From a virus, in the IMG/VR virus record IMGVR_UViG_3300008018_000002: a stretch of 37,256 bases of DNA. One strand, written 5' to 3'. The translations under genes were made by a program, and so were the position numbers. The notes under the pieces were generated by a model. It saw nothing but the letters and a program-made list of their open reading frames with translations. It made no database searches and had not been told where the DNA came from. Shown here one piece after another: positions 10,457-26,498 of this stretch (position 1 is the stretch's first letter; each line of letters opens with the position of its first letter).

Positions 10457-10491
10457 TTTGACTTTCGCCACCTTCGGGAAAATCCTTTCCC
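10457..10491 (+). promoter_or_regulatory. late promoter-like element, copy 1 (TTTGACTTTCGCC...AATCCT...ATG)
   Basis: TTGACT at 10458-10463, a 17-nt spacer, AATCCT at 10481-10486, then 5 nt and ATG 10492. No Shine-Dalgarno. Confidence 0.6.
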
Positions 10492-10770
10492 ATGGCATCG
10501 GCATTCAGGCAAGCACAGGGCATTTTCCGGGCGATCCGTGGCAACCCGGAGCTAATCGAGGAGCAGCGGGCGGCGTATGTCGCTGCCGAACGAAGCCTTA
10601 CGTCCACAACTGGCGGCATCCAGGTAGAATCCGCCACGGTCAACGGGCAATCATTTTCCGGCAAGGCGACATCAACGCCAGCCGAGCGTTTCGAGATCCT
10701 GCAAATCCTCATGGGCATGATCGACCGTGACTCTGCCGGAAACCGCACAACCATTGCCGGCTTTTTATGA
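10492..10770 (+). CDS. gpW-like head-tail joining protein (by position and loose similarity)
   Basis: 92 aa between terL and portal, as in lambda. The segment IQVESATVNGQSFSGKATSTPAERFEIL parallels the gpW core. Confidence 0.45.
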   Translation: MASAFRQAQGIFRAIRGNPELIEEQRAAYVAAERSLTSTTGGIQVESATVNGQSFSGKATSTPAERFEILQILMGMIDRDSAGNRTTIAGFL

Positions 10771-12218
10771 TACTTGACCAATACGGAAACGCCACATCCT
10801 CCTATTCCCGCCGACCATCACGCCACGCTAACCTTGGTGGGGGAGATAGGCCGAGCGAGTCAAGGAATCTGCGCGACCTGCACAAGGTTGTAACGAAGTA
10901 TGACCGTCAGACGCTTGTTTCAGCGAGCCGCACGCTTTACCTTAACAGCCCGTTGATGGTCGGCGCATCCAACCAGATCGGGATTTACTCGGTCGGCAAC
11001 GCATGGCTTCCAACCTACAAGGGCGACGATAAGGCGTTCGGAGACAAGGCGAAATACTGGCTCAAGGACGAGTGGTATTCGATCTGCAATATCATCGGAG
11101 ACGTTGCGGATTTCACATCCGACATGTTCGTTGATTCGGTTTCGCTAGACCGTGACGGAGAGGTTTTCGAGTATTCCACCAAGTCTCCGAACGGGTATCC
11201 ACAGATTCAACAAATCCCATCGCATCGCATTGAAAGCGGAGGACTTGCGGACGGCATCTTGCGTGATGGGAGGTATAAGGGTTATGATCTATACGACGGA
11301 ATCGTCTATTTCCCAAACACCTCAATCCCGGTCGCTTACTCCCTTTGCGACGTTGATAGACGGCACAAGCAGTTCATCGAAAAGAAGTTCATCCTCCACA
11401 TTTTCGACCGCTACTGGCCGGAGCAACGCCGGGGTCTGCCCCTTTTCTGGCATTCACTGAACAACCTGCGCGACATCCTCCAGAGCGAGGAATGGGAGCG
11501 CATGAACCTGCTCTCCATGTCGTCTCTCAACTATACGATTGAGAACGAATCCGGCGGCCCCGACATGGACGAGCCAGGATACGAGCCAGCTACCGAATGC
11601 GGTAAGCTCGCCGTGGAATATCTCCAAGGCGGGCGCATCACCTACGCGACGGCAGGGGCTGGCGAGAAGATCACGCAGCACCAGAACTTCCGCCCCGGCA
11701 ACCCTTGGCATGAGTTTTATGACATGCAGGCGCGGCAATGTTTGATCGGAGCAAGCCTCCCTGCATCGCTTTGGAAGCCATCTGGACAAGGCACCGCCGA
11801 ACGCGCCGACATTGGCAAGGCTTGCCGCTTTGTCGAAGATCGCCAATCCATGCTTGAGAAGATCGCGAAGTGGAGAGTCACCAAGGCTATCGCATGGGCA
11901 ATGGAAGCCGGGCGCATTCCGAAGTCGGATGAATGGTGGAAGTGGGAATTTACTAAGCCGCCAAAACTCACGATTGACGATGGCCGCAGCCTAAAAGAGA
12001 AGATGGAGCTTTACGATAAAGGGCTAGTCAACGCCACCGCCGTTATGGGTGAGCTTTCCACCGATTACGAGGAAACCATCCGCGAGCGGGCGCGTGAGGA
12101 GGCTATGCGCCTTGTTGCCGTCCGTGAGATCGGCGCGGAATACGGCGTGGAGATCGACCCCCGCAGCGTGAGACTTTTAACTTCAAACGAGCAACCAATC
12201 CAACCCACAGAAGAATGA
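10767..12218 (+). CDS. portal protein (lambda-family by context)
   Basis: 483 aa, between the gpW-like gene and the protease, ATGA-coupled on both sides. Confidence 0.8.
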   Translation: MILDQYGNATSSYSRRPSRHANLGGGDRPSESRNLRDLHKVVTKYDRQTLVSASRTLYLNSPLMVGASNQIGIYSVGNAWLPTYKGDDKAFGDKAKYWLKDEWYSICNIIGDVADFTSDMFVDSVSLDRDGEVFEYSTKSPNGYPQIQQIPSHRIESGGLADGILRDGRYKGYDLYDGIVYFPNTSIPVAYSLCDVDRRHKQFIEKKFILHIFDRYWPEQRRGLPLFWHSLNNLRDILQSEEWERMNLLSMSSLNYTIENESGGPDMDEPGYEPATECGKLAVEYLQGGRITYATAGAGEKITQHQNFRPGNPWHEFYDMQARQCLIGASLPASLWKPSGQGTAERADIGKACRFVEDRQSMLEKIAKWRVTKAIAWAMEAGRIPKSDEWWKWEFTKPPKLTIDDGRSLKEKMELYDKGLVNATAVMGELSTDYEETIRERAREEAMRLVAVREIGAEYGVEIDPRSVRLLTSNEQPIQPTEE

Positions 12219-13252
12219 TCACCATCGAAAACAAAGCAGGAAAAGTGAAACTGAATGAAGCTGTCACACAGGACAGCATCAAACGCATGATTGATGAGAT
12301 CGGCAAAATGTTCGGAGCCGCAGCAGTAGCTGAAGGCGCGGACTTTGGCGAGATTATGAACGCGGCAGAGAATGCCGTTGATGTTCTCGACATCGAGATC
12401 AACAGCCCGGGCGGCAGCGTGTTTGATGGATACAAAATCTATCAGGAAATCCGCTCGCTTCGGGATCGTGGCGTAGTTGTCAATGCCTGCATCACCGGAA
12501 TGGCCGCGAGCATGGCAAGTGTCATCGCTATGGCAGCGGATAAAATCTCCATTGTTAAGCACGGGCGCATGATGATCCATGACGCATCCAGCGCAGCGCA
12601 AGGCAACGCGGAATCACTCCGTAAGACCGCTGACCTACTAGACGGAATCAGTGGAGACATTGCCGATATTTACGCCGAGCGCACGGGTATTGATAAGGAA
12701 GAAGTCCGCGAAATGATGAAGCGTGAAACATGGATGACCGCTCGCGAAAGCATTGCAAACGGATTTGTTGACGAGGTGGTCGGGGAGCAAGTTGACATTC
12801 GCCAAGCATCAGCGGATTCTTCGCATATGAGCTTTCTTAATCGCCTCACGAACCCATCTTCCGAAGAGTCTATCGAACGCATTGCTGCGCTTGAAGCCGA
12901 CATCACCGCGCAAGCCGCTGACTACCAGGTCAAGCTAGACGCAGCCGAAGCCGCTTTGCAAGAAGCCGCCCAGCTCAGCACCGAAAACGTGGAGCTTCGC
13001 ATTCAGGCAGAGCTTGTCCCAAGCCTCCAGGCGAAGATCATCGAACTGGAAGCAGCAAACACCATCAACGCCGAAAAGATCGACAACGCAGCCGCACAAA
13101 AGCTCGCCGCGATGGGTCACGGCGAGCCGCTTGATCTTGGTGCGCAAAATCCAACTGATAAGATCAGCTCCAAAACGCTTACTGAGTTCCGCGAGTTACA
13201 ACCGCACGCTCAAATGGCCTTCATTAGGGGCGGAGGCAAGCTTATTGACTAA
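12215..13252 (+). CDS. head maturation protease (ClpP/S49 type) fused to scaffold-like coiled-coil C-terminus
   Basis: INSPGGSVFDGYKIYQEI and ITGMAASMASVIAMAAD are serine protease signatures. The C-terminal part is Ala/Glu/Gln-rich and helical. Confidence 0.8.
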   Translation: MITIENKAGKVKLNEAVTQDSIKRMIDEIGKMFGAAAVAEGADFGEIMNAAENAVDVLDIEINSPGGSVFDGYKIYQEIRSLRDRGVVVNACITGMAASMASVIAMAADKISIVKHGRMMIHDASSAAQGNAESLRKTADLLDGISGDIADIYAERTGIDKEEVREMMKRETWMTARESIANGFVDEVVGEQVDIRQASADSSHMSFLNRLTNPSSEESIERIAALEADITAQAADYQVKLDAAEAALQEAAQLSTENVELRIQAELVPSLQAKIIELEAANTINAEKIDNAAAQKLAAMGHGEPLDLGAQNPTDKISSKTLTEFRELQPHAQMAFIRGGGKLID

Positions 13253-13285
13253 ACAATCTCACAAACAATCTAAAAACAAACGACC

Positions 13286-14455
13286 ATGGCTAATACCCTT
13301 ACAGACCTAGTATCAGACTCCTTCGCCGCGCTTGACGTGGTTTCTCGCGAACTCGTCGGATTTGTTCCGTCGGTTACTCGCGACGCAAGCGTTGATCGCG
13401 TTGCGCTCAACCAAACCGTTCGCGTTCCAAAGTCTCGCGCAAATTCGGCGGGGCGTGACATTACGCCTGCTATGGCGTTCCCGGCTGCTAACGACCAAAC
13501 TGTTGACAATTCCGGGCTTACTATCACAAAGGTTCGCGCATTCCCTTTCTCTTGGACTGGTGAAGAGCGTTACACTCTCGACCGTGGCCCCGGAGCATTG
13601 ACCGTTTCACAAGGATGGATCGCACAAGCTCTTCGCGCTGCCGTCAATGAGGTGGAAACCGACATCGCAACCGCAGCGTATCTCGGTGCATCCCGCGCAT
13701 TCGGCATAGCTGGGACAACCCCATTCGCTTCCGATCTTGGTGCATCCGCCCAGATGAAGAAAATCCTCGACGACAACGGCGCACCCGGAACCGGACGATC
13801 GCTGGTGATCAACACCACCGCTGGTGCATCGCTTCGCACGCTTCTGAATAACCCGCTGAACGCAAATACATCACTCAACGGGGATTCCACCCGCCAAGGA
13901 ATGATCATGGATGTCAACGGATTCAAATTCCGCGAATCCGCGCAAGTTCCAACAGTTGCAGCTGGAGCAATGGCATCCGCCACCAGCACAAACGCCGCGT
14001 TTACTGTTGGGCAGACGGTTATTCCGCTTGCTACCGCAGGAACCGGAGTGGTTGCCGCTGGTGATATCATCACCTTCGCAAACGACACCAACAAGTATGT
14101 CGTCGCATCGGTTAGCTTTGCGGGTGCGAACCCAGCATCGGGCGACACCATCACGCTTGCCGCCCCGGGACTGCGTGTGGCTCAGTCCGCCGCTACCCGT
14201 GCAATCACTGTGGTTTCCACCAGCGCCCGCAGTGCGGGATTCAGCGAAAACGCCATCGTGCTAGCCGCTCGGCTCCCCGAGGTTGACCCTGACGGCGATC
14301 TTGCCGCTATGCGCGAAACGATCACTGACCCTGTTTCAGGTCTTTCTTTCGAGATCGCGGCGTATCCGGGATACCGCATGATGACCTATGAAGTATCGCT
14401 CGCTTGGGGCGTTAAGGTCATCAAGCCCGAACACCTCGCTGTTCTCCTCGGCTAA
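13286..14455 (+). CDS. major capsid protein
   Basis: 389 aa directly after the protease-scaffold gene, with an A/C-rich unstructured leader, followed by a strong terminator. Confidence 0.8.
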   Translation: MANTLTDLVSDSFAALDVVSRELVGFVPSVTRDASVDRVALNQTVRVPKSRANSAGRDITPAMAFPAANDQTVDNSGLTITKVRAFPFSWTGEERYTLDRGPGALTVSQGWIAQALRAAVNEVETDIATAAYLGASRAFGIAGTTPFASDLGASAQMKKILDDNGAPGTGRSLVINTTAGASLRTLLNNPLNANTSLNGDSTRQGMIMDVNGFKFRESAQVPTVAAGAMASATSTNAAFTVGQTVIPLATAGTGVVAAGDIITFANDTNKYVVASVSFAGANPASGDTITLAAPGLRVAQSAATRAITVVSTSARSAGFSENAIVLAARLPEVDPDGDLAAMRETITDPVSGLSFEIAAYPGYRMMTYEVSLAWGVKVIKPEHLAVLLG

Positions 14456-14493
14456 TCTCCCGGCATCTGTTGTATTTGTTTACTCATTGCAGT

Positions 14494-14530
14494 CCGCCCC
14501 GCATACAACCATGCGGGGCGGATTTGTTTT
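14494..14530 (+). terminator. rho-independent terminator after capsid gene
   Basis: CCGCCCCGCAT-ACAACC-ATGCGGGGCGG forms a perfect 11-bp stem, followed by ATTTGTTTT. Confidence 0.85.
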
Positions 14531-14537
14531 GACCTGT

Positions 14538-14572
14538 TTTGACATTCGCCGGGATACACGCAACCCTAGCGC
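14538..14572 (+). promoter_or_regulatory. late promoter-like element, copy 2 (TTTGACATTCGCC...AACCCT...ATG)
   Basis: TTGACA at 14539-14544, a 17-nt spacer, AACCCT at 14562-14567, then 5 nt and ATG 14573. A second TTTGAC lies 10 nt upstream, in the terminator tail. Confidence 0.55.
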
Positions 14573-14908
14573 ATGTCCATCCTGAGCGAGTTCATTTCCT
14601 CCGTTGCTCCAATCGCCAGAGCCGTGATTGGAGCGGAGACGCTATCCATTGCGGGCGGAACAGCAATCAGCGGGACGTTCAACGAGGCTCGCCATTCACG
14701 CGATTACGAGGAAGGCGGATTTGATCGGGATGCGATGATGGATTTCGTGGTCGAGACAGCAACATTCGCATCGGCCTATGCCGGATCGGTAACGGACTAC
14801 CTAGGCAAAGCGGCGACCGCAAGGGACGATTCATGGCGCGTTTCATCCATCAGCAAGGGCGCGTTTTTCGTCACGGTGGGATTGGTTTCAACGAACAAAT
14901 CGGCATGA
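14573..14908 (+). CDS. head-tail connector/completion protein (by position)
   Basis: 111-aa ORF, first gene after the capsid terminator. Confidence 0.5.
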   Translation: MSILSEFISSVAPIARAVIGAETLSIAGGTAISGTFNEARHSRDYEEGGFDRDAMMDFVVETATFASAYAGSVTDYLGKAATARDDSWRVSSISKGAFFVTVGLVSTNKSA

Positions 14909-15672
14909 TATCCGGAAAGATCGACACCCGTGAACTAGACCGGCAGATGCGATCCCTCGCCGCTGATTTCGGTGATACAAATGAAACCGCAATCGCACGC
15001 TGGGGCGTGGCAACATGCCGCTCGCTTGTCAAGGGGACGCAGGCTTGGGGAGATGACACCGACGCAAAGAAGAACCAGGAAGCATCTATCAAAAAAGATG
15101 CAAACAGGGCGGTTTACAGCGTGAGCAAGGCTGCATACGTCAACGGCGTGGCATCCGGCAAGTTGTCCGGTCTGGTTATCAACGGTTCGCTTGTGACATT
15201 CACGCCGGATCGCATATTGAAAACCCCGCAGGAAATCAACGCATTCATCGAGCGCAAGCGAACCGGGAAAAACAACCGCGTGCCGACAATGAAGCGGAAT
15301 GACAAGGCCATCACTTCCGTTCCGGCAATGAACAAAGCGTTGCGCATCCGTTTCAAGAAATCCGGGGAGGCAAAGGGCGGATGGATCGGAGCCGGTATAT
15401 CAATCGGCGCGAAGCAACGCAAAGGATCACGCATCACGATTGGAAAGAACGTGGCAGGCTATGCTCACAAGTTCAAGGGAGGTGGCACATCGAGGCTCAC
15501 CCGCTCGCAATGGAACCCCATCGGGAAGATCATCAATAACATCCCGTATGTTTCAACCAATTACGTTTTGAAGAAATCGGACGCTATCGACGCAATCAAC
15601 AACGGCGGTAAAATGACGGTGAAATGGTATGAATCCGCCATCAGGGCAAAACTCAAACGAAAAAAAAGATGA
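14905..15672 (+). CDS. structural protein (head-tail region, by position)
   Basis: ATGA overlap with the upstream stop. 255 aa with a basic C-terminus. Confidence 0.5.
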   Translation: MISGKIDTRELDRQMRSLAADFGDTNETAIARWGVATCRSLVKGTQAWGDDTDAKKNQEASIKKDANRAVYSVSKAAYVNGVASGKLSGLVINGSLVTFTPDRILKTPQEINAFIERKRTGKNNRVPTMKRNDKAITSVPAMNKALRIRFKKSGEAKGGWIGAGISIGAKQRKGSRITIGKNVAGYAHKFKGGGTSRLTRSQWNPIGKIINNIPYVSTNYVLKKSDAIDAINNGGKMTVKWYESAIRAKLKRKKR

Positions 15673-16091
15673 CCACTGACAAACTACTAGACGCATGGAA
15701 ACGATGGGTGCAACGCGGAACATCGCTTCCCGTGGCGATGCGCGACGATGCAACCGTGAAGCAATACCCCGGAATCTATATCGAGGGCGACAGCGCATCC
15801 AGGTTTGAATCAGGCGGGGTGCAGGATAGTAATACCTTCACCATCGAATGGGACACGAAGCTCGTAACAACCCCCGGCGAGGACGCGCAGCAAGCGACAA
15901 GCAAGCTGGCACATGGGGGCCTGCGTGATGCAATCTCCGAGCATATCGAATCTTGCCAAGCGGAGCCGTGGATGGATAGCCAAATTGGAATCCGTGTTTT
16001 CCAGCTACTCATAAACACTCCAGAGACAAGCGAGGAGGACGGCTATCGGGTGACGACATGGAAGGGATCTGCGGTCGCTTGCGTAATTTGA
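15669..16091 (+). CDS. head-tail/tail completion protein (by position)
   Basis: ATGA-coupled, 140 aa. Its stop TGA lies inside the TTTGAC of the next promoter-like element. Confidence 0.5.
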   Translation: MTTDKLLDAWKRWVQRGTSLPVAMRDDATVKQYPGIYIEGDSASRFESGGVQDSNTFTIEWDTKLVTTPGEDAQQATSKLAHGGLRDAISEHIESCQAEPWMDSQIGIRVFQLLINTPETSEEDGYRVTTWKGSAVACVI

Positions 16092-16122
16092 CTTTCGCCA
16101 CGGTTCGCGGGAATCTTTTGGC
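16087..16122 (+). promoter_or_regulatory. late promoter-like element, copy 3 (TTTGACTTTCGCC...AATCTT...ATG)
   Basis: TTGACT at 16088-16093, an 18-nt spacer, AATCTT at 16112-16117, then 5 nt and ATG 16123. Confidence 0.6.
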
Positions 16123-16548
16123 ATGGCTGCACGCAACTTTTCCCTATCCCGTTTTGGCACCGTTGATGAGTCTTCGGCAACAGGTCTTTTCCTTGGTGAA
16201 ATTACCTATGATTACCAGTCCGATAAGGTTGACATCAAGAACCACATCAGTTCAACGGTTGGATTCACTCTCGCCGACCCAAGGACGGACGTTAAGCTTT
16301 CCGGCGTAGTCACAACCAAGACGGCTGGATTCACCCCGGCCATTGCGTCGGTTCTTACGCTAGCCAATAGCTCTGCTGACACACTTTCTCTTAACTCCAA
16401 GGGAATCTTTGGAACCCCGGTAGGAAACGCCGGAGTGGTCGTCTATGCCGCAATGCTCAAGCGCGTGAACGGCGATTTCGAGACTGGAGATTGCTCCGGG
16501 ATTTTCCATCCCGAGACTGTTACGAACGCTCCGGTTAGCCTTACCTGA
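16123..16548 (+). CDS. major tail tube protein (by position)
   Basis: 141 aa, Thr/Ser/Gly-rich and beta-like, upstream of the chaperone and tape measure genes. Confidence 0.55.
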   Translation: MAARNFSLSRFGTVDESSATGLFLGEITYDYQSDKVDIKNHISSTVGFTLADPRTDVKLSGVVTTKTAGFTPAIASVLTLANSSADTLSLNSKGIFGTPVGNAGVVVYAAMLKRVNGDFETGDCSGIFHPETVTNAPVSLT

Positions 16549-16566
16549 TCCATAACACCATGAAAT

Positions 16567-17124
16567 ATGACACCGCAACTCTCTACCCATCGAACGGGCG
16601 ACATTAACTTTTTTGCCGCTTGCATGAGCATCGGCATAGCACCGGACTTGATCGAGCCGTCCGAGGTCATCCAATCCGATGATGGGCATGACTACCTATC
16701 GTTTCGGCTTAACTCGGCTTCTGAATGCGGACAATACGTGACCCAGGAAATGAATCGCGCATGGAGCAAACCAGACCATTTCCGGCGTGAGTTCCCATCG
16801 CATCCGTTTGTAATGGTTATGGATTTCGCCAAGTATGCACGCGGAGCTAAGTCAAAGCTTGACTGGATCGAAAAGGGAGCATCGTTCCTTGGCGTGTCCC
16901 GTGACTCGATCCGCAAGGACTTGACCCGAGTGTCCCAGCTTGAATACGAGCTTCCGGACTCGCCGCTGACATACGTGATTTGCTACATCGTCAACCGATG
17001 GGCGGCAATCGCATGGGCGAAATCCGCAATTCCAAAAACCGTAGTTAACGCGGGGCCATCTATCGTGATGCTTGACGGCAACCTACCAAAAAGAAAACAA
17101 CTCGAAATCCTTTCCTACATATGA
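16567..17124 (+). CDS. hypothetical protein (185 aa) inserted between tube and chaperone genes
   Basis: Solid ORF, ATGA-coupled to the chaperone gene. Not part of the canonical tube-G-GT-tape measure order. Confidence 0.55.
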   Translation: MTPQLSTHRTGDINFFAACMSIGIAPDLIEPSEVIQSDDGHDYLSFRLNSASECGQYVTQEMNRAWSKPDHFRREFPSHPFVMVMDFAKYARGAKSKLDWIEKGASFLGVSRDSIRKDLTRVSQLEYELPDSPLTYVICYIVNRWAAIAWAKSAIPKTVVNAGPSIVMLDGNLPKRKQLEILSYI

Positions 17125-17507
17125 AATCAGCACCAGCATACGCAACGCCGCGCACAGTCGCCGGCCAGAAAGTCTATCCATGCGCTTACGGACATATCCA
17201 TTGGCTAACGGAGCGCAAGAACCCCGTAATGACGCAGAAGGGCAACGCCGACGATTACGCGCTGGCGGAAATATGCTTTGCGTTCACGACCGACCCCAAG
17301 AGCCTCCAGAGCATCAAGGGGGCGCAGGCCAAGGCGCGGGTGACCACCTTTCTTATGGAATCAACCAGCAAGTCCCTGGCGGCGTTGTGGACGCACGCAA
17401 GCAAGGAGATCGAGCAATACTTTTCCTCCATGACCGTCCCAAAAAAAGCCCCGGCGCAGGCAACCAAAAGAAGCCGCAAACCTGCGACCCGTGCGCGGAA
17501 GCGGTAA
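17121..17507 (+). CDS. tail assembly chaperone (G analogue)
   Basis: 128-aa ORF immediately upstream of the tape measure gene. Contains a slippery A7 run near its 3' end. Confidence 0.7.
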   Translation: MKSAPAYATPRTVAGQKVYPCAYGHIHWLTERKNPVMTQKGNADDYALAEICFAFTTDPKSLQSIKGAQAKARVTTFLMESTSKSLAALWTHASKEIEQYFSSMTVPKKAPAQATKRSRKPATRARKR

Positions 17508-17716
17508 TCATTTACACTCTCGGAAAATGCAATCTCACCCGCGACCAGATCCTCTATGAACTCCCTGCGTCATTCATCAATCAACTCATGTCCTGTGCAT
17601 GGATCGAGGCCGGACGCGAAATCGAAGGGATCGCGGATCGAGGAAAAACAGCGGAAGATATCCACGCGAAACTATTAGCCATAGCAAGGCGACCGAAACC
17701 TAAATTTGACCTATGA
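17121..17716 (+). CDS. tail assembly chaperone, -1 frameshift fusion product (GT analogue), join(17121..17447,17447..17716), 198 aa
   Basis: The -1 frame is open from the A7 run to 17716 (…PKKSPGAGNQKK…KFDL). Its stop overlaps the tape measure ATG (ATGA at 17713). Confidence 0.7.
17441..17447 (+). promoter_or_regulatory. slippery heptamer A AAA AAA for programmed -1 frameshift
   Basis: The zero-frame codons CCA AAA AAA GCC allow tandem tRNA-Lys slippage. CGCAGG (17455-17460) and CCTGCG (17482-17487) can pair downstream. Confidence 0.65.
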
Positions 17717-19107
17717 GCATCAGCACTACATTTACGCTTAAATTCGCAGGCGCATCCGTCGAGCGAGGACTGAAGCGGGTTCAGTCAGGATTCAAGTCTT
17801 TGGGCGGTGTGGCGCTACGCATCGGAAAAAGTTTGCTTTCTCCGTTTGCGGCGCTGACAGCGATGCTTGGAACTGGCGCTCTAATAGCGGGAATGACTTC
17901 ATTTATTAAATCATCTTCGGAGGCGGCTTCGTCCGTCGAATCCCTAACCACTCAATTCACAACACTCCTTGGGAGCGCGACAGCGGCTAAGGATAGAATG
18001 GAGGAAATCACCAAGTTTGCAGCAAGTACCCCGTTTGAGATCCAGGAGTTAGCGGCAACATCAAGACTATTGGAGGTCATGGGCGGCAGCCTAATATCCA
18101 CTGGCGACGGATTACGTCTTGTAGGTGATGCGGCAGCAATGTCTGGACAAGCCCTCGGAGAGGTTGGTCTTCACATTGGGCGATTGTTTTCCGCCATCAC
18201 ATCCGGCACAAGCGCGGGCGAATCCGTGAACCGACTGCAAGAGCTGGGGCTAATCACCGGAGCTACAAAGATCAGATTTGAGGAGTTGGCGGCAGCACAA
18301 AAGAAGGGAAAGGCGGCAACGCTTACCGGAGCGGAGGCATTGAAGATGCTCCAAGGCGTTATGAGCAAAGCTCAGGGAGGTATGGCGGCGCTATCAGCTA
18401 CGACGGAGGGCAAGCTTTCTAATATGCGAGACAATATCGACCAACTCAAAGTCGCCTTCGGAACAGGCTTCAACGTCGGGCTAAAAAATGCGCTGGATCG
18501 AGTAAACGAGTTTCTTCCAAAGATGATGGAAAAATTCAAGGATTTTGGAAATGAGACAGGAAAGATAATGATCCAGTTAATGGACGCTTTCGAGCAAGGC
18601 AGGCTTGGTGATGTGGTGGAGGCGGCACTTATGGCTGGAGTGACCAGAGCGGGAGAAGAAATGGTTGCGGCCATGGTATTCGCTGGTAACGCCCTTTACG
18701 ACACCATATCGAAAAGAATGAAGGGATCAGAACTAGGTAAGCTATTCAACGCACCTGGAGCGGCTGGTAACACTCCGATATTTAATAAGATGCCAACAGC
18801 ATTAAAAGTAACGGGGCCAGCACAACTAATAAGAGCAGGAGAGGCAGCAATGTCCTTAAATTCTCACTTTAATCAGCAACAAGGCTCCACCGAATCATAT
18901 CAGGATGTAAGGAAAGGCTTTCGAGATGCGTTTGGGTCTGGTGAGTTTACACAGATATTGCGCGAGACAATGCAAAAGCAAGGCAACGTCCCGCAAGCCC
19001 CAGGATACAGATACGCACAGCCAGGCGAACCTGCTACAATTATGGATGGAGAGCGCGTGGTTAGAATACTGGCAAGCATCGAACGCAACCTAGCCCCGCA
19101 ACCATAA
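17713..19107 (+). CDS. tape measure protein
   Basis: 464 aa, Ala/Gly/Leu-rich and helical with hydrophobic segments. Follows the frameshifted chaperone. Confidence 0.8.
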   Translation: MSISTTFTLKFAGASVERGLKRVQSGFKSLGGVALRIGKSLLSPFAALTAMLGTGALIAGMTSFIKSSSEAASSVESLTTQFTTLLGSATAAKDRMEEITKFAASTPFEIQELAATSRLLEVMGGSLISTGDGLRLVGDAAAMSGQALGEVGLHIGRLFSAITSGTSAGESVNRLQELGLITGATKIRFEELAAAQKKGKAATLTGAEALKMLQGVMSKAQGGMAALSATTEGKLSNMRDNIDQLKVAFGTGFNVGLKNALDRVNEFLPKMMEKFKDFGNETGKIMIQLMDAFEQGRLGDVVEAALMAGVTRAGEEMVAAMVFAGNALYDTISKRMKGSELGKLFNAPGAAGNTPIFNKMPTALKVTGPAQLIRAGEAAMSLNSHFNQQQGSTESYQDVRKGFRDAFGSGEFTQILRETMQKQGNVPQAPGYRYAQPGEPATIMDGERVVRILASIERNLAPQP

Positions 19108-19934: not shown

Positions 19935-20503
19935 GACTTTGGTTAAAGGGCAACATCACAATTCCACCTAAGCCCCGCACGGTCGGAGGACTGGTAGTAT
20001 GGGCGCGTGGGGTCAACAGGGCGCTGGCTGAACTACGGGATCGCAAGATCGTCGGCGGCGTTGCTCCGGGGCGAGGTGGCGGTGCATCGCCGCTAAAGCT
20101 TACGCTGAAGCAAGGCACGGAGGCTGACAAATTACAGGTGATTCCCGGCACGGTAAACGGGGAAATGCCGACGCTGGCCGGGACGGCGCTGGACGCAACG
20201 GTTGGCGATCCGGCCTTGCCTCCCGAGATAACCGTAGCGGTAGATACATGGGTATGGATCAAATGCGTTGGGACATTCGGCGACCCGGACACCTACGTTG
20301 TAACGATTGTCACGGAAACCACGGACGCGCCGCCAGCCGGGACGGCAATTTCAGCGACGGGGTTTACCTCGTTTGAAAACATAGGATACATTACGGTTGA
20401 CACTGCGCCCGACCCGGACGCCTACGAGATAACAAATGTCCACGGTGGGGGCAATCTCGGGGTGGATAGCTGGGGTCTCTACAACCATTGGTGGAGGGCG
20501 TAA
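19931..20503 (+). CDS. minor tail protein (by position)
   Basis: ATGA-coupled, 190 aa. Confidence 0.5.
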   Translation: MRLWLKGNITIPPKPRTVGGLVVWARGVNRALAELRDRKIVGGVAPGRGGGASPLKLTLKQGTEADKLQVIPGTVNGEMPTLAGTALDATVGDPALPPEITVAVDTWVWIKCVGTFGDPDTYVVTIVTETTDAPPAGTAISATGFTSFENIGYITVDTAPDPDAYEITNVHGGGNLGVDSWGLYNHWWRA

Positions 20504-20506
20504 CCC

Positions 20507-21265
20507 ATGTCACTGACCCCGAAAGACATACGAGTTGAAGGCCCCGATGTTTTTGGTAATCTGGCTGTTGTGACCTTGGGTGAGCCGTCCGGCATTGATG
20601 CCCCTCCGTTCTATGAGAGCTTCCACGGCGAACTCACAATGAACGGTTCATATTACGGGTCGGGATTTTATTCAAACATCGAGTATGTCTACTCATCCGT
20701 CCTTATGGAAACCCAGGAACTCACCCGGATAGGTCTTCGCGACCCACTTCTGGATGTGATGGCTTTTGAGGAGGGTTACGAGGTAGTCCGTAACACCGAC
20801 CCATCGGGATTTGCTGACATAGGCGGGACAACAGCATCGGCGGATGGGAAATGCGCGGCGTTCTGCGGTTTCGTCCAAGCGCCTTCGGGTCAATTCGTTC
20901 CGCTCTCCGTGCCATGGTTTACTTCCGCTGGCTCGCCGTCTTTTGATCCTGATCCGGGCATCGGGGTCAGGAGAGACCATGACGATGACCCGGTGACTGA
21001 GATCGACATACTGGTGTATCCCTCATTCACAGGCCCCTATTTCACCGGGACAATCGGAGAGTCGGATTTCAGAATGAAATTCGGAGTCCGCGTTACTTTT
21101 TTCACGACGACCGGGGAACTGAACCCGGATGTGAGGAGTTTCGAGGTCGAGGTTGACGTTTCGGCGTGGACAAGTTTCAACTTCCGGGACATCCGAGGAA
21201 CCTACGGAGCGACCAGCTACGACGTAAACGGGATCGAATACGTCTGGAGCATCACGCTAGCTTGA
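20507..21265 (+). CDS. minor tail/baseplate protein (by position)
   Basis: 252-aa ORF starting 3 nt after the upstream stop. Confidence 0.5.
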   Translation: MSLTPKDIRVEGPDVFGNLAVVTLGEPSGIDAPPFYESFHGELTMNGSYYGSGFYSNIEYVYSSVLMETQELTRIGLRDPLLDVMAFEEGYEVVRNTDPSGFADIGGTTASADGKCAAFCGFVQAPSGQFVPLSVPWFTSAGSPSFDPDPGIGVRRDHDDDPVTEIDILVYPSFTGPYFTGTIGESDFRMKFGVRVTFFTTTGELNPDVRSFEVEVDVSAWTSFNFRDIRGTYGATSYDVNGIEYVWSITLA

Positions 21266-21330
21266 TGGCATGGAAAATATCACAGCCCTGTCTTCTTGCT
21301 CGCTGATTGAACCATAATAACTTTTCCCAT

Positions 21331-21350
21331 CGCCCCCCTCGCGGGGGGCG
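21331..21350 (+). other. GC-only hairpin (8-bp stem CGCCCCCC/GGGGGGCG, loop TCGC) without U-tract
   Basis: Lies in the 193-nt gap between 21265 and 21459. May be a terminator or an RNA-stability element. Confidence 0.4.
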
Positions 21351-21423
21351 CGGATTGAAACATAGTGGAAGGAATCTACGCACGATCCAAGGATCAAGGC
21401 AAGCGGGAAGTGAAAGCTTGAAA

Positions 21424-21458
21424 TTTGACTTTCGCCCCAATTCGGAAAAACCTTCGGT
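21424..21458 (+). promoter_or_regulatory. late promoter-like element, copy 4 (TTTGACTTTCGCC...AAACCT...ATG)
   Basis: TTGACT at 21425-21430, a 17-nt spacer, AAACCT at 21448-21453, then 5 nt and ATG 21459. Confidence 0.6.
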
Positions 21459-22325
21459 ATGACTCTTTCCGGCTCAGAAGTCCGATATGGCGTATTGGCA
21501 ACAACAGATCCGAACGCAATCAATGTTTCCGGCTCACAGCAGATCGGAACCGCCCTTTCCACCCTGCGATATGAATACGCGCCAAACGTCGCGTATTCGT
21601 TCGGGATGCTGATTCAAGCTGGCGATACGCTATCAATGGACATGTCCACCGGGATAATCACCGGAACCGTGGCAGGAACGGCGCAAGTCGAAACCGCTAC
21701 GATTGTAGCTGCCGCTGGTGCTACCACGGCGGGCGACCTTAATGTAACGGTTACGAGCGCTCTTGTCACCGGATCACCGCTAGTCATTCCGGTTGCGCTG
21801 CTGCTTACCGATAACACCGCATCACTCGTAGCAGCTAAAGTCCGAACAGCCCTAGGCGCAACCGCAGCTATTACCGATCATTACACGGTTGGCGGCACTG
21901 GGGCTAGCTACTCGCTGACCACATCAGCAGTCGATAAAGCGGCAAACGACGCAACGCTAAACCTCGCTCACGCAAACGGCACATCGGCTGGCATTACGAC
22001 CGCGACCACATCAGCGGACACCACCGCAGGGGTCGGAACAAGTCGGGCGTATAAATTCTCCGGGGTCACTTGGGATGCGACCGACTATGAGGGGCGCGAT
22101 TTGCCGACGATGACAAAGGTTCATTCCGTCCTTATCCGCTCCGCATCAACTGCCGGATCCGTGGTGATTGACGACGCAACGCAATCCATGGACGTTGCCG
22201 TGCCTTTCGTCTCGCTGACAGCAAGCCCCAACGGCGATCACCCATACACGGCGGCGGCGGCACTAACATTCACAGCCGCAACCGCACCGATCACTCTCAT
22301 TGTTGACATTCACGCTGGCGAATAA
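21459..22325 (+). CDS. Ala/Thr-rich structural protein (tail-associated by position)
   Basis: 288 aa with low-complexity A/T/G/V stretches. Has its own promoter-like element. Confidence 0.55.
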   Translation: MTLSGSEVRYGVLATTDPNAINVSGSQQIGTALSTLRYEYAPNVAYSFGMLIQAGDTLSMDMSTGIITGTVAGTAQVETATIVAAAGATTAGDLNVTVTSALVTGSPLVIPVALLLTDNTASLVAAKVRTALGATAAITDHYTVGGTGASYSLTTSAVDKAANDATLNLAHANGTSAGITTATTSADTTAGVGTSRAYKFSGVTWDATDYEGRDLPTMTKVHSVLIRSASTAGSVVIDDATQSMDVAVPFVSLTASPNGDHPYTAAAALTFTAATAPITLIVDIHAGE

Positions 22326-22326
22326 T

Positions 22327-22644
22327 ATGGCCGATACAATCTACCTAATCAGAGGACAAGACCTAGACCTGACGGCTGTATTCAATGATGAAGCTGGCGC
22401 TCCGATTGTGATTGACGAGACCTACACGATCACAAGCTCCATGCGGTCAATGAAGGGGTGCCAGGATTCATTTGCGCTATCTCCCGCTGTTTCCGATGGG
22501 GCCGTGACGATCAACAGGGTGACTGATGACCTTGCAGATCCTAAATATGTTTTCGACATTATCGTAAAGCCATCATCCGGGTCACGCGACATCACCACGC
22601 GGATTTACCTGCAACTTGAGCAACCCATCACCCCATTGACATGA
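22327..22644 (+). CDS. hypothetical tail-region protein (105 aa)
   Basis: First ATG in the ORF (the track start 22300 is TTG). ATGA-coupled to the fibre gene. Confidence 0.5.
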   Translation: MADTIYLIRGQDLDLTAVFNDEAGAPIVIDETYTITSSMRSMKGCQDSFALSPAVSDGAVTINRVTDDLADPKYVFDIIVKPSSGSRDITTRIYLQLEQPITPLT

Positions 22645-24614
22645 GCACCGCCAACGTAACGCAGACCGGACAAGCCTCCACTGTAACCGTAACCGTATCC
22701 CGTGGGCTTCCCGGAATCCCCGGAATCCCCGGAATCCCCGGCACAACCGACTACAACGAGCTAGACAACGTCCCGGAATCGTTCACCCCGTCCCTGCACG
22801 CATCAACGCACGCAACAGGAGGCACCGATCCGATCACGCCCGCCAGCATCGGAGCGGCTACACAGGCCGATATTGACGCAGCAACTAGCGATGCAACGGC
22901 GCTGACGCTAGTTAAGCGCGGCGCAAATGGTGAGGCGGAGTTTGGGGATTCTTCGTTTGAAAACGAATTTTCCGGCAATGGACTTGAAAGCTATTCCTTT
23001 TCTGGAAACGGTCTTTACGGTGAATCGGCCACAGGGGTTGGTGTTCGTGGGGATGGCGGGCTAGGCATCGGCGGTTTTTTTGTGGGGCAGACTCTCCATG
23101 CGGTTTTTGGGATTTCGGGGACTAGTCCTGGATCGTCGTATATTGACTCAAACGGAGCCTACGGATGGAATCGCGCACCGTTCGGCGCGACGCTGAACGC
23201 TCCGGCTGTAACAGCGACTAGGGCATGGACGCTTCCCGACGCATCTGGCACGCTTGAGACCCAAGCCGGAGCCGCCGCGCAGATCGAGGCAATCGCCACG
23301 CCATCATATCTCGACAGGTTCACGCTGCGGGCGGATGCGACCGACATAGTCAACGGCACCACCCCTGAAATCGGCAACCCCTATTTCTTACACCTAACGC
23401 CGACATCGACGGGGAATCCTCCCCGCATCGCCGCGACTGGCGGGCTGGTTGGAAAACCTGGAGTCCCGTCAGCGGAGGGTCTGTTTTATCTCGGCGGGCG
23501 GGTTGTAGAGGGTATCAGGAGTTTTGGGATCGACCTTACATATTCGTCCGTTCCCGGTGGGACTGATGCGCGGCGCGGCGTAACGATGGCGTTTTCACTC
23601 GCCCCCCTGTTCACCGAACTTGGAGCCATCCAATTACCGGCTGACATGTTGCACATCAAACTAAACAACCAAGGGATCTCAAAATTCGGGATCGGGAACG
23701 GCGGAGCTAGTTTTTCCCCAATCGAAAAAATACGCCCAACAAATCCGGGCAACCTTACCCCGTGGACGGCGAGCCAGACCACTGGTGGTGGGATAGTTTT
23801 TGCCAAGCGGTTCCACGTGATTTTTGAGTTCGCACCCGGCGAGTGTCGCATCAAGGCATTTAACCAGACGCACATTTACCGGGATGCGCGGATCGTCGTG
23901 CCGCTCGACTGGTGGTATGAATCGGCTGGAGCGCACACGGACAGCCGTGAATATCCGACCCTCTACGCCGCATGGGCAAACGCCCCTTACATGGATTCCG
24001 CCACGGTAAGCTCCACATTTCTCGGCGAGATTGGAACCAGTGGTCCACTTGTTTTCCCACATTCGTCCGTGTCATTTAACGGGATTACAGTGAATGGGGC
24101 TTTCCTGGCGGGCACCAATATGAGGTTCACCCCATTCGCCGGTTGGGCACCTAAACCCGTGGTGGCCAACCTCGCGACCAAAATCACCAATGACCTGTTA
24201 TCCGGCGCAGGGGATGACTATACGACCGACACACTACTGGCGATGGAAGGGCGGGCGCTCGCTCTCGGCTCGGTTAACACCTACGAAATCACCGGGTTTT
24301 TCGGCAATACTGACAATGACCGGAGGATCGCGATCAGCGAGGAGTTCTCCGGCGATATTTTTGACTCCGGAGTTCTCGCTGCCGCCGACGTGAAAAACCG
24401 GCTCTGGGTGATGCGAATCACTGTGCAGCGCACCGGATCAAACTCAAAACGCTTTATGACCCATTTGGCAATCCACGGTGGACCAAACATCATCCGGACT
24501 GATACTGCATCATCCGCAGCGGCCTCAAACCTGAATTTCCGGACTACATCCGTAGCGGCTGGTGATGTGTCCATCTATACATATTTCGCCCGCACGGAAG
24601 CATACGCGCCGTAG
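22641..24614 (+). CDS. tail fibre protein with short collagen-like repeat
   Basis: GLPGIPGIPGIPGT near the N-terminus. 657 aa, last structural gene before the lysis genes. Confidence 0.7.
   Translation: MSTANVTQTGQASTVTVTVSRGLPGIPGIPGIPGTTDYNELDNVPESFTPSLHASTHATGGTDPITPASIGAATQADIDAATSDATALTLVKRGANGEAEFGDSSFENEFSGNGLESYSFSGNGLYGESATGVGVRGDGGLGIGGFFVGQTLHAVFGISGTSPGSSYIDSNGAYGWNRAPFGATLNAPAVTATRAWTLPDASGTLETQAGAAAQIEAIATPSYLDRFTLRADATDIVNGTTPEIGNPYFLHLTPTSTGNPPRIAATGGLVGKPGVPSAEGLFYLGGRVVEGIRSFGIDLTYSSVPGGTDARRGVTMAFSLAPLFTELGAIQLPADMLHIKLNNQGISKFGIGNGGASFSPIEKIRPTNPGNLTPWTASQTTGGGIVFAKRFHVIFEFAPGECRIKAFNQTHIYRDARIVVPLDWWYESAGAHTDSREYPTLYAAWANAPYMDSATVSSTFLGEIGTSGPLVFPHSSVSFNGITVNGAFLAGTNMRFTPFAGWAPKPVVANLATKITNDLLSGAGDDYTTDTLLAMEGRALALGSVNTYEITGFFGNTDNDRRIAISEEFSGDIFDSGVLAAADVKNRLWVMRITVQRTGSNSKRFMTHLAIHGGPNIIRTDTASSAAASNLNFRTTSVAAGDVSIYTYFARTEAYAP
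22711..22737 (+). repeat. 9-bp tandem repeat CCGGAATCC x3 (encodes GIP repeats)
   Basis: Three perfect adjacent copies plus a partial CCGG. Confidence 0.9.
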
Positions 24615-24665
24615 AGCGCAGGAACTGTAATTGAAAACCCTGCCGATCATCCACCTCTCCGACTC

Positions 24666-25121
24666 ATGAACTGGTTCCAGGAAAAACTCTTCTACTCCGC
24701 AACAGTGATGCTCTCGTCCGGCTGCCTCTGGCTCGGCACCATACTGAGCGTGGGCGATGTCCGGTGGTTATACGCAACCGGAGCTGCCTCGTTGATGACC
24801 AGCGGCTTCGTCGGCCTCGCTCTCCGAAAAGACGGCGACTCCATCCGCATCCTCATCTCCCGGACGGGCATCGGTTTCGTTGGCGGGGTGTTCGGCACAA
24901 AACTGGTGCTCCATTGGTTCTCAGCCCTCGACCATATCCGCGTCCAGTCCGAAACCGACCTCATCCTCCTCTGCGGGATCGCGACGCTGGTCTCCATCGT
25001 CTCCCACACCCTGGGCTACTCCATCATCAAATCCGCCGACGACTCCGCCGCAAACATCGCCAGCCGCCTCCTCGACCGCCTCCTCATGTTCCTCGGAATC
25101 TCCCGCCAGAACAAGCCATGA
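24666..25121 (+). CDS. membrane protein, about 4 TM helices (holin candidate by position)
   Basis: Four hydrophobic segments. First gene of a cassette that ends with a peptidase. Confidence 0.5.
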   Translation: MNWFQEKLFYSATVMLSSGCLWLGTILSVGDVRWLYATGAASLMTSGFVGLALRKDGDSIRILISRTGIGFVGGVFGTKLVLHWFSALDHIRVQSETDLILLCGIATLVSIVSHTLGYSIIKSADDSAANIASRLLDRLLMFLGISRQNKP

Positions 25122-25501
25122 ACAAATTCTCCACCCCCATCGATTTCGTAAAGCACTGCTGGTCGGCCGGATCATTGATCGTCCGCACCACGAACAATGT
25201 CGAGTTCCAAAGCGACAGATTCGGCGACATCGAGATCCCATCCGGAACACTCTCCGACGGCGCATCCGTCCCCCGGATGTTCTGGCCGATCTTCTCCCCG
25301 TTCGACGGCGACTATTTCGACTCCGCCGTCCTACACGACATGATCTACCGCGACCGCGCCACCAAGTTCACCCGCGCGGAAGCCGACCTGATTTTCCTCG
25401 AAGCCATGAAATCCCTCGGAGTCGGATGGTTCAAGCGCACCCTCGTCTATCGCGCCGTCCGCATCGGAGGCGCAGCCCCTTGGAGAAACGCCAGAACATG
25501 A
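25118..25501 (+). CDS. DUF1353-like protein
   Basis: IPSGTLSDGASVPRMFW...DSAVLHDMIY matches the remembered DUF1353 pattern. ATGA-coupled on both sides. Confidence 0.5.
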   Translation: MNKFSTPIDFVKHCWSAGSLIVRTTNNVEFQSDRFGDIEIPSGTLSDGASVPRMFWPIFSPFDGDYFDSAVLHDMIYRDRATKFTRAEADLIFLEAMKSLGVGWFKRTLVYRAVRIGGAAPWRNART

Positions 25502-25647
25502 AAACATCACTCATCACCGCCGCCCTCGCCCTCCTCGCCCTGTATTTCCTAACAAGCTGCACCCTCACCGTCTCACCGGACGGAACGCGGACATGGGGCA
25601 TGGACGGGGAGCAAGCTGCAAGAGCCATCATCATCTACGCAAAATGA
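25498..25647 (+). CDS. small lipoprotein (spanin-like candidate)
   Basis: Signal peptide MKTSLITAALALLALYFLTSC with an L-T-S-C lipobox. 49 aa, ATGA-coupled. Confidence 0.6.
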   Translation: MKTSLITAALALLALYFLTSCTLTVSPDGTRTWGMDGEQAARAIIIYAK

Positions 25648-26210
25648 CACGCCAGGAAATCACCGAAACACAGCGCCGGATTGGAACCGTCCCCGATGGA
25701 TTCTGGGGAGCTAAGAGCATCGCCGCTTGCCAGAAACATCTTCGGGCGCTCATGCCAAATCCGAAGCCGTGGCCTGCCTCATCGCAAGCCGCCCTCACCG
25801 CCTTCTACGGCGCTCCCGGCGATGAATCCCAACTGATCGGGATCAGCGTAACAGGACTAGGCGTTAAATACGAGGGGCAGGCCGTCCGCTCAATCCGCTG
25901 CCATCGCAAAGTGGCTGACTCACTCCTGCGGATCGTAACCGCCCTTTCACAGATCCCCGAAGGCCGCGAAATCATTGGTAAATATGCCGGGGTCTATAAT
26001 AACCGACCGATGCGCGGAGGCTCGCTGCCGTCACTACATGCACGGGGCGCTGCTATCGACCTCGACCCAGGCTCAAACCGCAATAAACAGGCATGGCCGG
26101 TATCAGCAACCATGCCGCTCGCCGTGATGGAGGCTTTCGCCGCCGAGGGATGGCTGTCCGCCGGCGCATTCTGGGGGCGCGATGCAATGCATTTCCAGGC
26201 TACTCAATAG
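25644..26210 (+). CDS. endolysin, M15-family zinc peptidase with N-terminal peptidoglycan-binding-like segment
   Basis: SLHARGAAIDLD and GRDAMHFQ are the H-x6-D...H metal ligands of the VanY/M15 type. VPDGFWGAKSIAACQKHL is PG-binding-like. Confidence 0.75.
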   Translation: MTRQEITETQRRIGTVPDGFWGAKSIAACQKHLRALMPNPKPWPASSQAALTAFYGAPGDESQLIGISVTGLGVKYEGQAVRSIRCHRKVADSLLRIVTALSQIPEGREIIGKYAGVYNNRPMRGGSLPSLHARGAAIDLDPGSNRNKQAWPVSATMPLAVMEAFAAEGWLSAGAFWGRDAMHFQATQ

Positions 26211-26239
26211 CTGGCGAGGATCGAAATCATGGAACGTCG

Positions 26240-26410
26240 TCACCCGCTGACCTTCCCCCTCAGCCTCTCCAGTATATCCGGCTGTTGCCACTTAGGAGGC
26301 TTGCGGCGACCACTGAGCCAGTCGTAGGCCGTCGCTTTTTTGCAGCCGACCGCCTCGGAGATTTGCGCGGCGCTGTAACCGCTGAGTGATTTCGCGAATG
26401 TTTTTTTCAT
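26240..26410 (-). CDS. small HTH regulator (Cro/CI- or YdaS-like), 56 aa
   Basis: YSAAQISEAVGCKKATAYDWLSGRRKPP is an HTH. Divergent from the early operon. ATG at 26410 (the track start 26431 is TTG). Confidence 0.6.
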   Translation of the reverse strand: MKKTFAKSLSGYSAAQISEAVGCKKATAYDWLSGRRKPPKWQQPDILERLRGKVSG

Positions 26411-26446
26411 CGGCAAATCCTTGCGCCGCAAAGCGTTTTAGTCAAA
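26411..26446 (-). promoter_or_regulatory. promoter-like element on - strand (TTTGACT 36 nt before ATG 26410)
   Basis: The - strand reads TTTGACTAAAACGCTTTGCGGCGCAAGGATTTGCCG-ATG, the same distance as the late copies. AAGGAT could instead be a Shine-Dalgarno. Confidence 0.4.
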
Positions 26447-26470: not shown

Positions 26471-26498
26471 TTGCAAATCGTTCGGCATTGCCTAGACT
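26471..26498 (+). promoter_or_regulatory. early rightward promoter candidate TTGCAA-16 nt-TAGACT
   Basis: Lies back-to-back with the - strand element across an A-rich tract that carries AAAAAAGAT twice. Confidence 0.5.

Follow-up and report, generated by a model that had tools for sequence, protein, structure and literature searches.

An extended -35 element at a fixed distance before structural-gene starts in an uncultured phage family: candidate promoters for leaderless mRNAs

The viral genome IMGVR_UViG_3300008018_000002 from IMG/VR, analysed here over its whole length of 37,256 nucleotides (the window), is the complete circular genome of a siphovirus of ~37.1 kb. The window opens and closes with an exact 112-bp direct repeat (1-112 and 37145-37256) and therefore represents a complete circular assembly or else a terminally redundant genome. 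Its structural module carries five copies, A to E, of a short DNA element that precedes a start codon at an almost constant distance, and it is this element, read here as a probable promoter for mRNAs that begin on the start codon itself, that we describe. From the start of the window, DNA-modification genes (ParB-like and two Mom-like) are followed by TerS, TerL and a gene of 105 amino acids (aa). Element A then introduces a 92-aa gene, the portal gene, a ClpP-type protease gene in which element B precedes a nested putative scaffold gene, a P22-type capsid gene and a strong intrinsic terminator. Element C introduces three head-to-tail genes; element D, a 141-aa protein, a chaperone-like pair, the tape-measure protein and tail genes; and element E, a 288-aa protein and further tail or lysis genes, up to a leftward 56-aa helix-turn-helix (HTH) gene. 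The rightward early genes then encode RecT, a YqaJ-like protein, an initiator with iterons, a DnaC-like protein and DnaB.

Exact copies of the 13-mer TTTGACWTTCGCC, that is TTTGAC(T/A)TTCGCC, lie on the + strand at sites A, C, D and E, and the original prediction, made from the letters of this genome, had their positions, their spacings, the following ATGs and the intervening boxes AATCCT, AACCCT, AATCTT and AAACCT exactly right. The four exact matches compare with ~0.002 expected in 2 x 37 kb. With up to two mismatches allowed the genome contains seven matches, a number reached in 0 of 100 shuffles, and a chance origin of the copies is excluded. One of the near matches is GTTGACATTCGCC at site B, also on the + strand, which the original list of five sites had overlooked; the fifth member of that list, on the - strand at 26446, belongs to another class and is treated separately below. 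All five + strand copies lie in the structural module and share the same anatomy, namely TTGACW (W, A or T), 17-18 nt, A(A/T)NCYT (N, any base; Y, pyrimidine), 5 nt and ATG, with the shorter spacer at A, C and E and the longer one at B and D (Table 1). The ATGs at A, C, D and E are the earliest possible start codons of their respective open reading frames (ORFs). A position-weight scan, built from all instances in the family, found no weaker copies, and the total for the genome is five.

Table 1. Coordinates of the elements and of the genes and signals around them in the 37,256-nt window.
Feature	Position	Strand	Details
Element A	10457-10494	+	TTTGACTTTCGCC; -35 TTGACT 10458-10463; extension TTCGCC; spacer 17 nt; AATCCT 10481-10486; 5 nt ending in C; ATG 10492
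Gene A	ATG 10492	+	92 aa; followed by portal and protease genes
Prohead protease ORF	12215-13252	+	ClpP domain at residues 52-191 (Pfam CLP_protease, E 6e-31)
Element B	12791-12829	+	GTTGACATTCGCC; spacer 18 nt; ATTCTT 12816-12821; 5 nt ending in T; ATG 12827; within the protease ORF
Putative nested scaffold gene	12827-13252	+	141 aa, Ala/Glu/Gln-rich; in frame inside the protease ORF
Capsid gene	13286-14455	+	upstream of the terminator
Strong intrinsic terminator	14491-14524	+	14-bp stem with 9 G-C pairs, T-rich tail; after the capsid gene, immediately upstream of element C
Element C	14538-14575	+	TTTGACATTCGCC; spacer 17 nt; AACCCT 14562-14567; 5 nt ending in C; ATG 14573 (111-aa gene)
Element D	16087-16125	+	TTTGACTTTCGCC; spacer 18 nt; AATCTT 16112-16117; 5 nt ending in C; ATG 16123 (141-aa gene)
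Tape-measure protein gene	17713-19107		downstream of gene D
Element E	21424-21461	+	TTTGACTTTCGCC; spacer 17 nt; AAACCT 21448-21453; 5 nt ending in T; ATG 21459
Gene E	ATG 21459	+	288 aa; Ala/Thr-rich tail-region protein; behind element E
Candidate leaderless promoter of the 56-aa HTH regulator gene (26240-26410)	26408-26446	-	TTGACT 26445-26440; 17 nt; AAGGAT 26422-26417; 6 nt; ATG 26410
Candidate rightward early promoter	26471-26498	+	TTGCAA; 16 nt; TAGACT; inferred from sequence

A search of IMG/VR with the pattern TTGACWTTCGCC-N11/12-ANNCYT-N5-ATG matched 68 stretches, where we estimate that ~3 would be expected by chance. The motif search across relatives that had been suggested along with the original prediction thus finds company for every site: in over 60 contigs of uncultured viruses the element stands before these five gene starts, in 2-4 copies per contig and always on a single strand. 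The five orthologues behind it begin MASAF/MSPF.., MSFLNRLT.., MSILSDF.., MAARNFSL.. and MTLSGTEV.., respectively. In the matched loci nearly every 12-mer core, including occurrences outside the pattern, stands 34 or 35 nt before an ATG, and a few cores precede a GTG. To avoid circularity, relatives were also picked through homology to the gene D protein alone. In this motif-independent sample TTGACWTT lies 34-35 nt before the gene D ATG in 26 of 26 relatives, and the element is likewise present at site B in 8/8, at site C in 13/14 and at site E in 16/16. The original prediction had staked itself on the homologous positions in relatives, and it is there that the element is found.

In 95 further loci, fetched via the capsid protein, the motif is absent, since the family's capsid gene is mosaic and a poor guide to membership. 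The capsid gene of the source genome is 74-76% identical to those of contigs L001, L002 and L081, phages that otherwise share little with it, and in most members of the motif family the place between this scaffold gene and element C is taken by another capsid gene. A survey of repeated k-mers in the capsid-fetched loci was uninformative, and TTGACW found 34-36 nt before ORF starts in capsid-related loci (24 occurrences against ~11 expected) amounts to a weak excess. TTGACWTTYGCC is also present in three unrelated-looking contigs with a G+C content of 40-47%, L121 (- strand, 730), L141 (2704 and 2906) and L156 (- strand, 1041), followed by an ATACTT-like -10, 5 nt and the ATG of early-type genes, one of them 5'-3' exonuclease-like. 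These copies may be chance matches, of which ~3 were expected, or may represent a wider promoter type with the same extension.

Alignment of the 101 distinct instances on the start codon (20 in class A, 22 in B, 18 in C and 16 in E) reveals conservation in two blocks, separated by a spacer that differs in sequence and not in length. The hexamer TTGACW is invariant in 101/101 and in divergent lineages. Nearer the gene, position -11 is A in 97, position -10 is A in 90, position -8 is C in 84 and position -6 is T in 88 of the 101, and position -1 is a pyrimidine in every one (72 C, 29 T). Within each site class this last base switches between C and T and is never a purine, and at 53 other gene starts of the genome a pyrimidine occupies -1 in 55% and A, the commonest base there, in 40%. 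Positions -2 to -5, the spacer and the upstream flank are unconserved. The second block lies 5 nt, rarely 6, from the ATG and the first lies at 34 nt (A, C and E) or 35 nt (B and D); a constant distance of the one combined with two alternative distances of the other points to a -35/-10 pair with a spacer of 17 or 18 nt. The -10-like hexamer agrees with TATAAT at three of six positions, below the 4-of-6 threshold of a consensus scan, and retains the A at position 2 and the T at position 6. A pyrimidine at -1 and a purine at +1 are general at transcription start sites in all species of a gut microbiome, including Akkermansia (PMC4782308). RNAalifold, applied to 24 diverse instances, gave 0 base pairs and no covariation, an Rfam scan of the source genome gave no match and a tRNA search found none; RNA-level readings of the element were rejected on these grounds.

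The bases that follow TTGACW differ from lineage to lineage. They are TTCGCC in the main clade, mostly TTCGCG with some TTCGCC in a second clade whose TerL is ~66% identical (clade 2), TTGCCA at 4/4 sites of contig L189 and TTGG-- in L187, and all four share TTGACW and its distance of 34-35 nt to the start codon. In 72 of the 79 locus strands with at least two sites, the six bases behind TTGACW are identical across the sites. A further clade (L221, L222, L225 and L228) has TTGACA or TTGCAC, then TCTAGCRG (R, purine), then TTAGGG, and at two sites the distance to the ATG is once more 34-35 nt; this motif lies at ~2550-2585 and ~8735-8799 in L222 and at ~2510-2546, ~8050-8084 and ~9295-9358 in L228, and at the clade's tail-protein gene it comes with an inverted repeat, TCTAGCGG...CCGCTAGA, and with a leader of ~24 nt. 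Main-clade instances have AANCYT as their -10-like hexamer; in L189 and clade 2 the hexamer is degenerate. Four contigs (L102, L113, L189 and L228) have a ligase-like gene with a KxDG motif inserted between genes C and D, and directly behind it an extra, sixth copy of the element (L102 1340-1376; L189 4705; L228 ~8050; also in L113) that precedes a 256-aa head-to-tail gene. This copy carries the extension of its own clade and leads to GTG in L102, L113 and L189 and to ATG in L228. The source genome has neither the insert nor the sixth copy.

Site B shows what the element does to a protein that has to accommodate it. The ATG behind it is codon 205 of the protease ORF, directly past the ClpP domain, and the -35 hexamer lies 35 nt upstream of that codon. 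The 141-aa nested product is a putative scaffold, as suggested by its position before the capsid gene and its helix-prone composition; it has no match in PHROG or PDB. The nested in-frame start is also present in the relative L229, and site B itself in clade 2 and L189. Within the -10-like block of site B a Ser codon is TCT in 25/25 sequences, and the adjacent third positions vary. The same codon statistic in the -35 block is circular, the search pattern having fixed those bases, and was not used. An Ile-to-Phe replacement at site B corresponds to the other base permitted at the W position, and in L189 the peptide VDIRQ becomes VDIAS and so spells that contig's own variant, TTGCCA. Since the TCT codon is fixed and the changes in the protein follow the DNA motif, the constraint acts on nucleic acid and not on protein; to judge from these substitutions, the DNA motif overrides the protein at this site.

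The reading that we favour, with a probability of roughly 0.62, is that the five + strand elements are promoters for host RNA polymerase with a sigma factor of the sigma-70 family, that transcription would start at the A of the ATG, or one base away at most, to give leaderless mRNAs for the structural genes, and that the extension is probably read by an accessory factor. The promoter and its leaderless product, which were at the heart of the original prediction, are supported by the presence of the element in relatives, by its two-block pattern, by the pyrimidine at -1 in all 101 instances and by the lack of a conserved RNA fold; no computational test capable of refuting them did so. A start on the A of the ATG in particular is suggested because a consensus -35, a spacer variable in sequence and constant in length, the block with A at -11, a pyrimidine-purine step and the lack of RNA structure coincide. 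What the sequences show directly is the anatomy of the sites, their conservation and their pattern of variation; that transcription begins at the ATG, that the host translates 5'-AUG mRNAs, that expression is late and that an accessory factor takes part are inferences.

Under this reading five sets of structural genes would be expressed from AUG-initial mRNAs that have neither a leader nor a ribosome-binding site. Element A would drive the portal and protease block. From element B a transcript of their own would carry the nested scaffold and capsid genes as far as the terminator, and an intragenic 5'-AUG transcript of this kind would be a way to express a nested gene where ribosomes ignore internal Shine-Dalgarno (SD) sites. 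Transcription would be restarted by element C just behind the terminator, element D would serve the putative major tail protein and element E the distal tail genes. Each promoter would combine a consensus -35 with a weak -10-like hexamer that keeps the A at -11 and the T at -6, and the 4-6 bp downstream of the -35 (TTCGCC in the source genome) would probably be bound by an accessory factor that differs among phage lineages and that would place the set under shared, probably late, regulation. Published work supports efficient translation of 5'-AUG mRNAs for one verrucomicrobial species, Akkermansia muciniphila, in which leaderless starts account for 10% of the mapped start sites as against 0.4% in E. 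coli (PMC4782308).

Two observations on translation and transcription elsewhere in the genome bear on this reading. The original prediction had set the missing SD sequences at these sites against SD-bearing early genes. The five sites do lack an SD, but the contrast was overstated, as a strong SD is present at only 7 of the 53 other gene starts and an SD 4-mer of any kind at 9; because most other genes also do without, the absence at the five sites is uninformative by itself. Many genes, that of the capsid among them, have A/C-rich leaders with no SD instead. Strong SDs of the GGAGG type are clustered in a run of small early genes (starts at 28843, 29115, 29378, 30675 and 31258), and two styles of initiation, GGAGG-type SDs and A/C-rich SD-less leaders, thus occur in one genome. 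The missing SDs at the five sites do fit a host in which SDs are scarce, and some Verrucomicrobia are of this kind (PMC10783764). Relatives of the capsid sit in contigs binned as Verrucomicrobiaceae or Prosthecobacter, and the ParB/Mom block shows 75-80% identity to contigs L076 and L089, of which L089 is binned as Caulobacter sp.

The second observation concerns the HTH regulator, whose upstream region had been listed as a fifth copy of the element. The TTTGACT and the leaderless geometry are indeed there, but TTCGCC is absent and the site forms a distinct class. HTH homologues have comparable arrangements, with TTGAAA, 16 nt, TACCAT, 6 nt and ATG in L118 and with TTGCCA, 17 nt, TAATCT, 7 nt and ATG in L160. 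This gene and its homologues, with ordinary -35/-10 pairs 6-7 nt before the ATG, indicate that leaderless geometry is not confined to the extended element. A candidate rightward early promoter nearby (Table 1) matches the consensus at 8/12 positions, below the threshold of the consensus scan, and would leave a leader of ~48 nt, A/C-rich and with no SD, before the ATG at 26553.

Several points weigh against leaderless promoters of this type. The whole case rests on sequence, and because the instances share phylogeny, raw counts overstate the number of independent events. The -10-like hexamer, at 3/6 matches to TATAAT, has no T at -12 and is missed by a standard consensus scan; little of it can still be made out in L189 and clade 2, where an A at -11 (or -12) and a W at -10 are all that is kept. 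With a gap of 5 nt, the A of the start codon falls at the near limit of the window in which start sites are usually chosen, and the modal start would be the next base, the T. In relatives some copies stand before GTG, and a 5'-GUG on a leaderless mRNA is not accepted by E. coli ribosomes. In L002 (~7160-7196) and in L189, gene C starts 3-6 nt past the T-run of the terminator with neither a promoter-like element nor an SD, from which it follows that SD-less internal initiation is possible and a leaderless mRNA not strictly needed. The assignment of a host is weak and conflicting, given the Verrucomicrobiaceae and Caulobacter bins. Finally, Pfam and PHROG scans of ~50 of the ~60 proteins of the source genome found no sigma factor and no known activator family.

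The last point touches the claim that the late promoters depend on an activator. The lineage-specific, genome-wide concerted change behind the -35 lends indirect support to that part of the original prediction, but no cognate factor was found. Because those bases change in concert, lineage by lineage, they suggest a trans-acting reader that co-evolves with them. The same scans found no MotA- or AsiA-like protein, and three candidates were set aside. A 139-aa protein encoded at 4770-5189, just upstream of the late region, has a DnaA C-terminal-type HTH match below the Pfam cutoff and found only its own cluster in a search of 5.8 billion proteins. A 77-aa protein of L226 with a weak sigma70_r4-like match has no homologue in the source genome. 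A 72-aa small early protein shared with clade 2 was dropped because it also occurs in motif-less contigs, one of them a phage contig that has no copy of the motif in ~27 kb covered of its 30.8 kb. We put forward tentatively, and as a whole consider doubtful, a fuller picture in which the bases behind the -35 (TTCGCC, TTCGCG, TTGCCA, TTGG-- or TCTAGCRG) would be the address of an unrecognised lineage-specific late factor. Such a factor would act with sigma region 4 on the retained TTGAC and make the -10 nearly dispensable; the whole structural regulon would be leaderless, with an intragenic promoter for the nested scaffold, and suited to hosts whose ribosomes ignore the SD.

The elements could instead be plain leaderless promoters of the housekeeping sigma factor that need no dedicated factor at all, with a shared extension that reflects descent, copy-and-paste of a cassette within the genome or a preference of the host polymerase. 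We regard this as unlikely, although TTGACW alone is constant over all lineages, no candidate regulator is common to the source genome and clade 2 despite their near-identical motifs, and the single shared small early protein is also present in the motif-less phage contig just mentioned. The copies of TTGACWTTYGCC in L121, L141 and L156, which have a better -10 (ATACTT) 5 nt before the ATG, would also fit such promoters, but three outside contigs are about the number that we estimate for chance. Runs of 12-13 identical bases are too short for gene conversion, and the spacers behind them differ among sites. The uniformity within a genome extends to site B, which is embedded in coding sequence and to which the protein adapts, and five unregulated consensus -35 promoters at structural genes would leave late timing unexplained.

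If the element worked as RNA, it would be a signal for SD-independent initiation on long polycistronic mRNAs, bound for example by S1, by a phage protein or by another part of the ribosome. The fixed distance to the start codon, an orientation that is always that of the gene and a host that evidently translates without SDs are all compatible with such a signal, and an RNA-binding partner could also yield the concerted change. We nevertheless consider it very unlikely. The invariant core is the -35 consensus TTGACA/T at the canonical 17-18 nt from the block with A at -11, neither structure nor covariation was found, and the genome elsewhere contains no complementary sequence. The capsid gene, the most highly expressed, uses an A/C-rich leader with no element, and no function in translation is known for a pyrimidine that is kept without exception at -1, where other starts favour A.

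Still less likely is that the 13-mers are repressor or roadblock sites, like the stoperators of mycobacteriophages, that gate read-through into the structural genes. The sites are asymmetric, 12-13 bp long, in one orientation and at gene boundaries, with a specificity that follows the lineage; however, no copy lies around the HTH gene (26.2-26.8 kb), the five copies in total are all in the structural module, and the fixed 34-35 nt to the ATG, the block from A at -11 to T at -6 and the pyrimidine at -1 would go unexplained. That the conserved boundary sequences are recombination joints between phage modules that look like promoters by accident is hardly credible, for although mosaic breakpoints adjoin some elements (family members have exchanged the genes flanking E as well as the capsid gene, which lies between B and C), joints need no fixed distance to an ATG, no variable spacer of constant length, no A at -11 and no pyrimidine at -1, and the gene in which site B is embedded is conserved to either side of it.

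Some features of the surrounding genome complete the description. A megablast search of the structural region against GenBank phages gave no match, a protein search placed the closest cultured phage capsids at 51% identity or less, and on these comparisons the phage has no close cultured relative. The 141-aa product of gene D is a putative major tail protein on the basis of synteny. It had been called the tail tube, with which its position agrees, but neither PHROG nor a PDB sequence search gave a match, and the AlphaFold model, with a pLDDT (predicted local distance difference test) score of 50, is too poor to define a fold. Genes behind the element are prone to annotation errors in public records: gene A is missing in L230 (473-782), and gene E of L229 is called three codons too early (13373 instead of 13382), presumably because these starts have no ribosome-binding site. 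The DNA-modification cluster (434-2171 and 5662-7771) comprises a DNA methyltransferase, a PAPS-reductase-like protein, a ParB-like protein and two tandem Mom-like genes. Inside an HTH_36 initiator-like ORF (32553-33377), six copies of (T)ATTGGCGCAAATG are spaced by 23-60 nt between 32860 and 33040; they resemble origin iterons within an initiator gene, as in lambda O, and one stray copy of the 10-mer occurs at 22920.

If the transcription starts do map to the ATGs, an uncultured phage family, probably of freshwater and possibly with Verrucomicrobia as hosts, would have leaderless structural mRNAs from a dedicated class of promoters. Copies before the scaffold and capsid and before the putative major tail protein would then be one way in which phages of SD-poor hosts set the ratios of their proteins, and a nested gene would be expressible without an internal ribosome-binding site. 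For annotation, gene callers mis-start or miss the genes that the element precedes. The motif can serve as a marker of the family and as bait for the factor that reads the extension.

The principle of transcription from the start codon is already known, from lambda PRM-cI, the late genes of Thermus phages, mycobacteria, Deinococcus and Akkermansia. The transcript of cI from lambda PRM is leaderless. A sigma-70-type promoter whose transcript starts at the A of the AUG is the likeness, and the same geometry is seen at the HTH gene of the source genome (ATG 26410) and its homologues; the difference is that a single regulatory gene is served in lambda, whereas five structural units with a common extended -35 would be served here. 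The Thermus phages phiYS40 and P23-45 have middle and late promoters with no known -35 and with an extended -10-type motif. Phage structural genes largely on leaderless mRNAs from similar phage promoters would be common to both cases (here as a prediction), but in the present family it is the -35 that has the consensus and the -10 that is weak, and the host lineage is another one. Leaderless genes of Mycobacterium, Deinococcus and Akkermansia resemble the phage set in having a -10 located 6-7 nt upstream of the start codon and a Y(-1)R(+1) step, and differ from it in a TANNNT -10, often with no clear -35, in place of AANCYT and a 12-13 bp -35 block. In the mycobacterial work described in PMC4633059, a 5' ATG or GTG suffices for leaderless translation.

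The nested gene recalls the C/Nu3 pair of lambda, in that a putative scaffold occupies the 3' part of a protease ORF in the same frame and starts just past the protease domain. The internal start of lambda Nu3 is a translational start on the same mRNA. Here, by contrast, the protease is of the ClpP type and the start has a promoter-like element and no SD before it, which suggests a separate leaderless transcript. The middle promoters of T4, with a MotA box at -30 and sigma appropriation, share a phage-specific block near -30, the use of host polymerase together with a phage factor and a temporal class (the last two as proposed here); the MotA box, however, replaces the -35 and is combined with a good -10, whereas in the present family the -35 is retained and the -10 is weak. 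The stoperators of mycobacteriophage L5 are likewise asymmetric sites of ~13 bp with TTGACA-like bases, in one orientation and at gene boundaries, but they number in the dozens, match the operator of the early promoter and lie at no set distance from start codons. Here there are five copies, each 34-35 nt from an ATG and none in the regulatory region. What the present family appears to add to these systems is an extended -35 block of 12-13 bp that would define five or six structural-gene promoters across a large group of uncultured phages, a concerted variation of the extension that is specific to each lineage, and an element within a protease gene, placed before the putative start of a nested scaffold.

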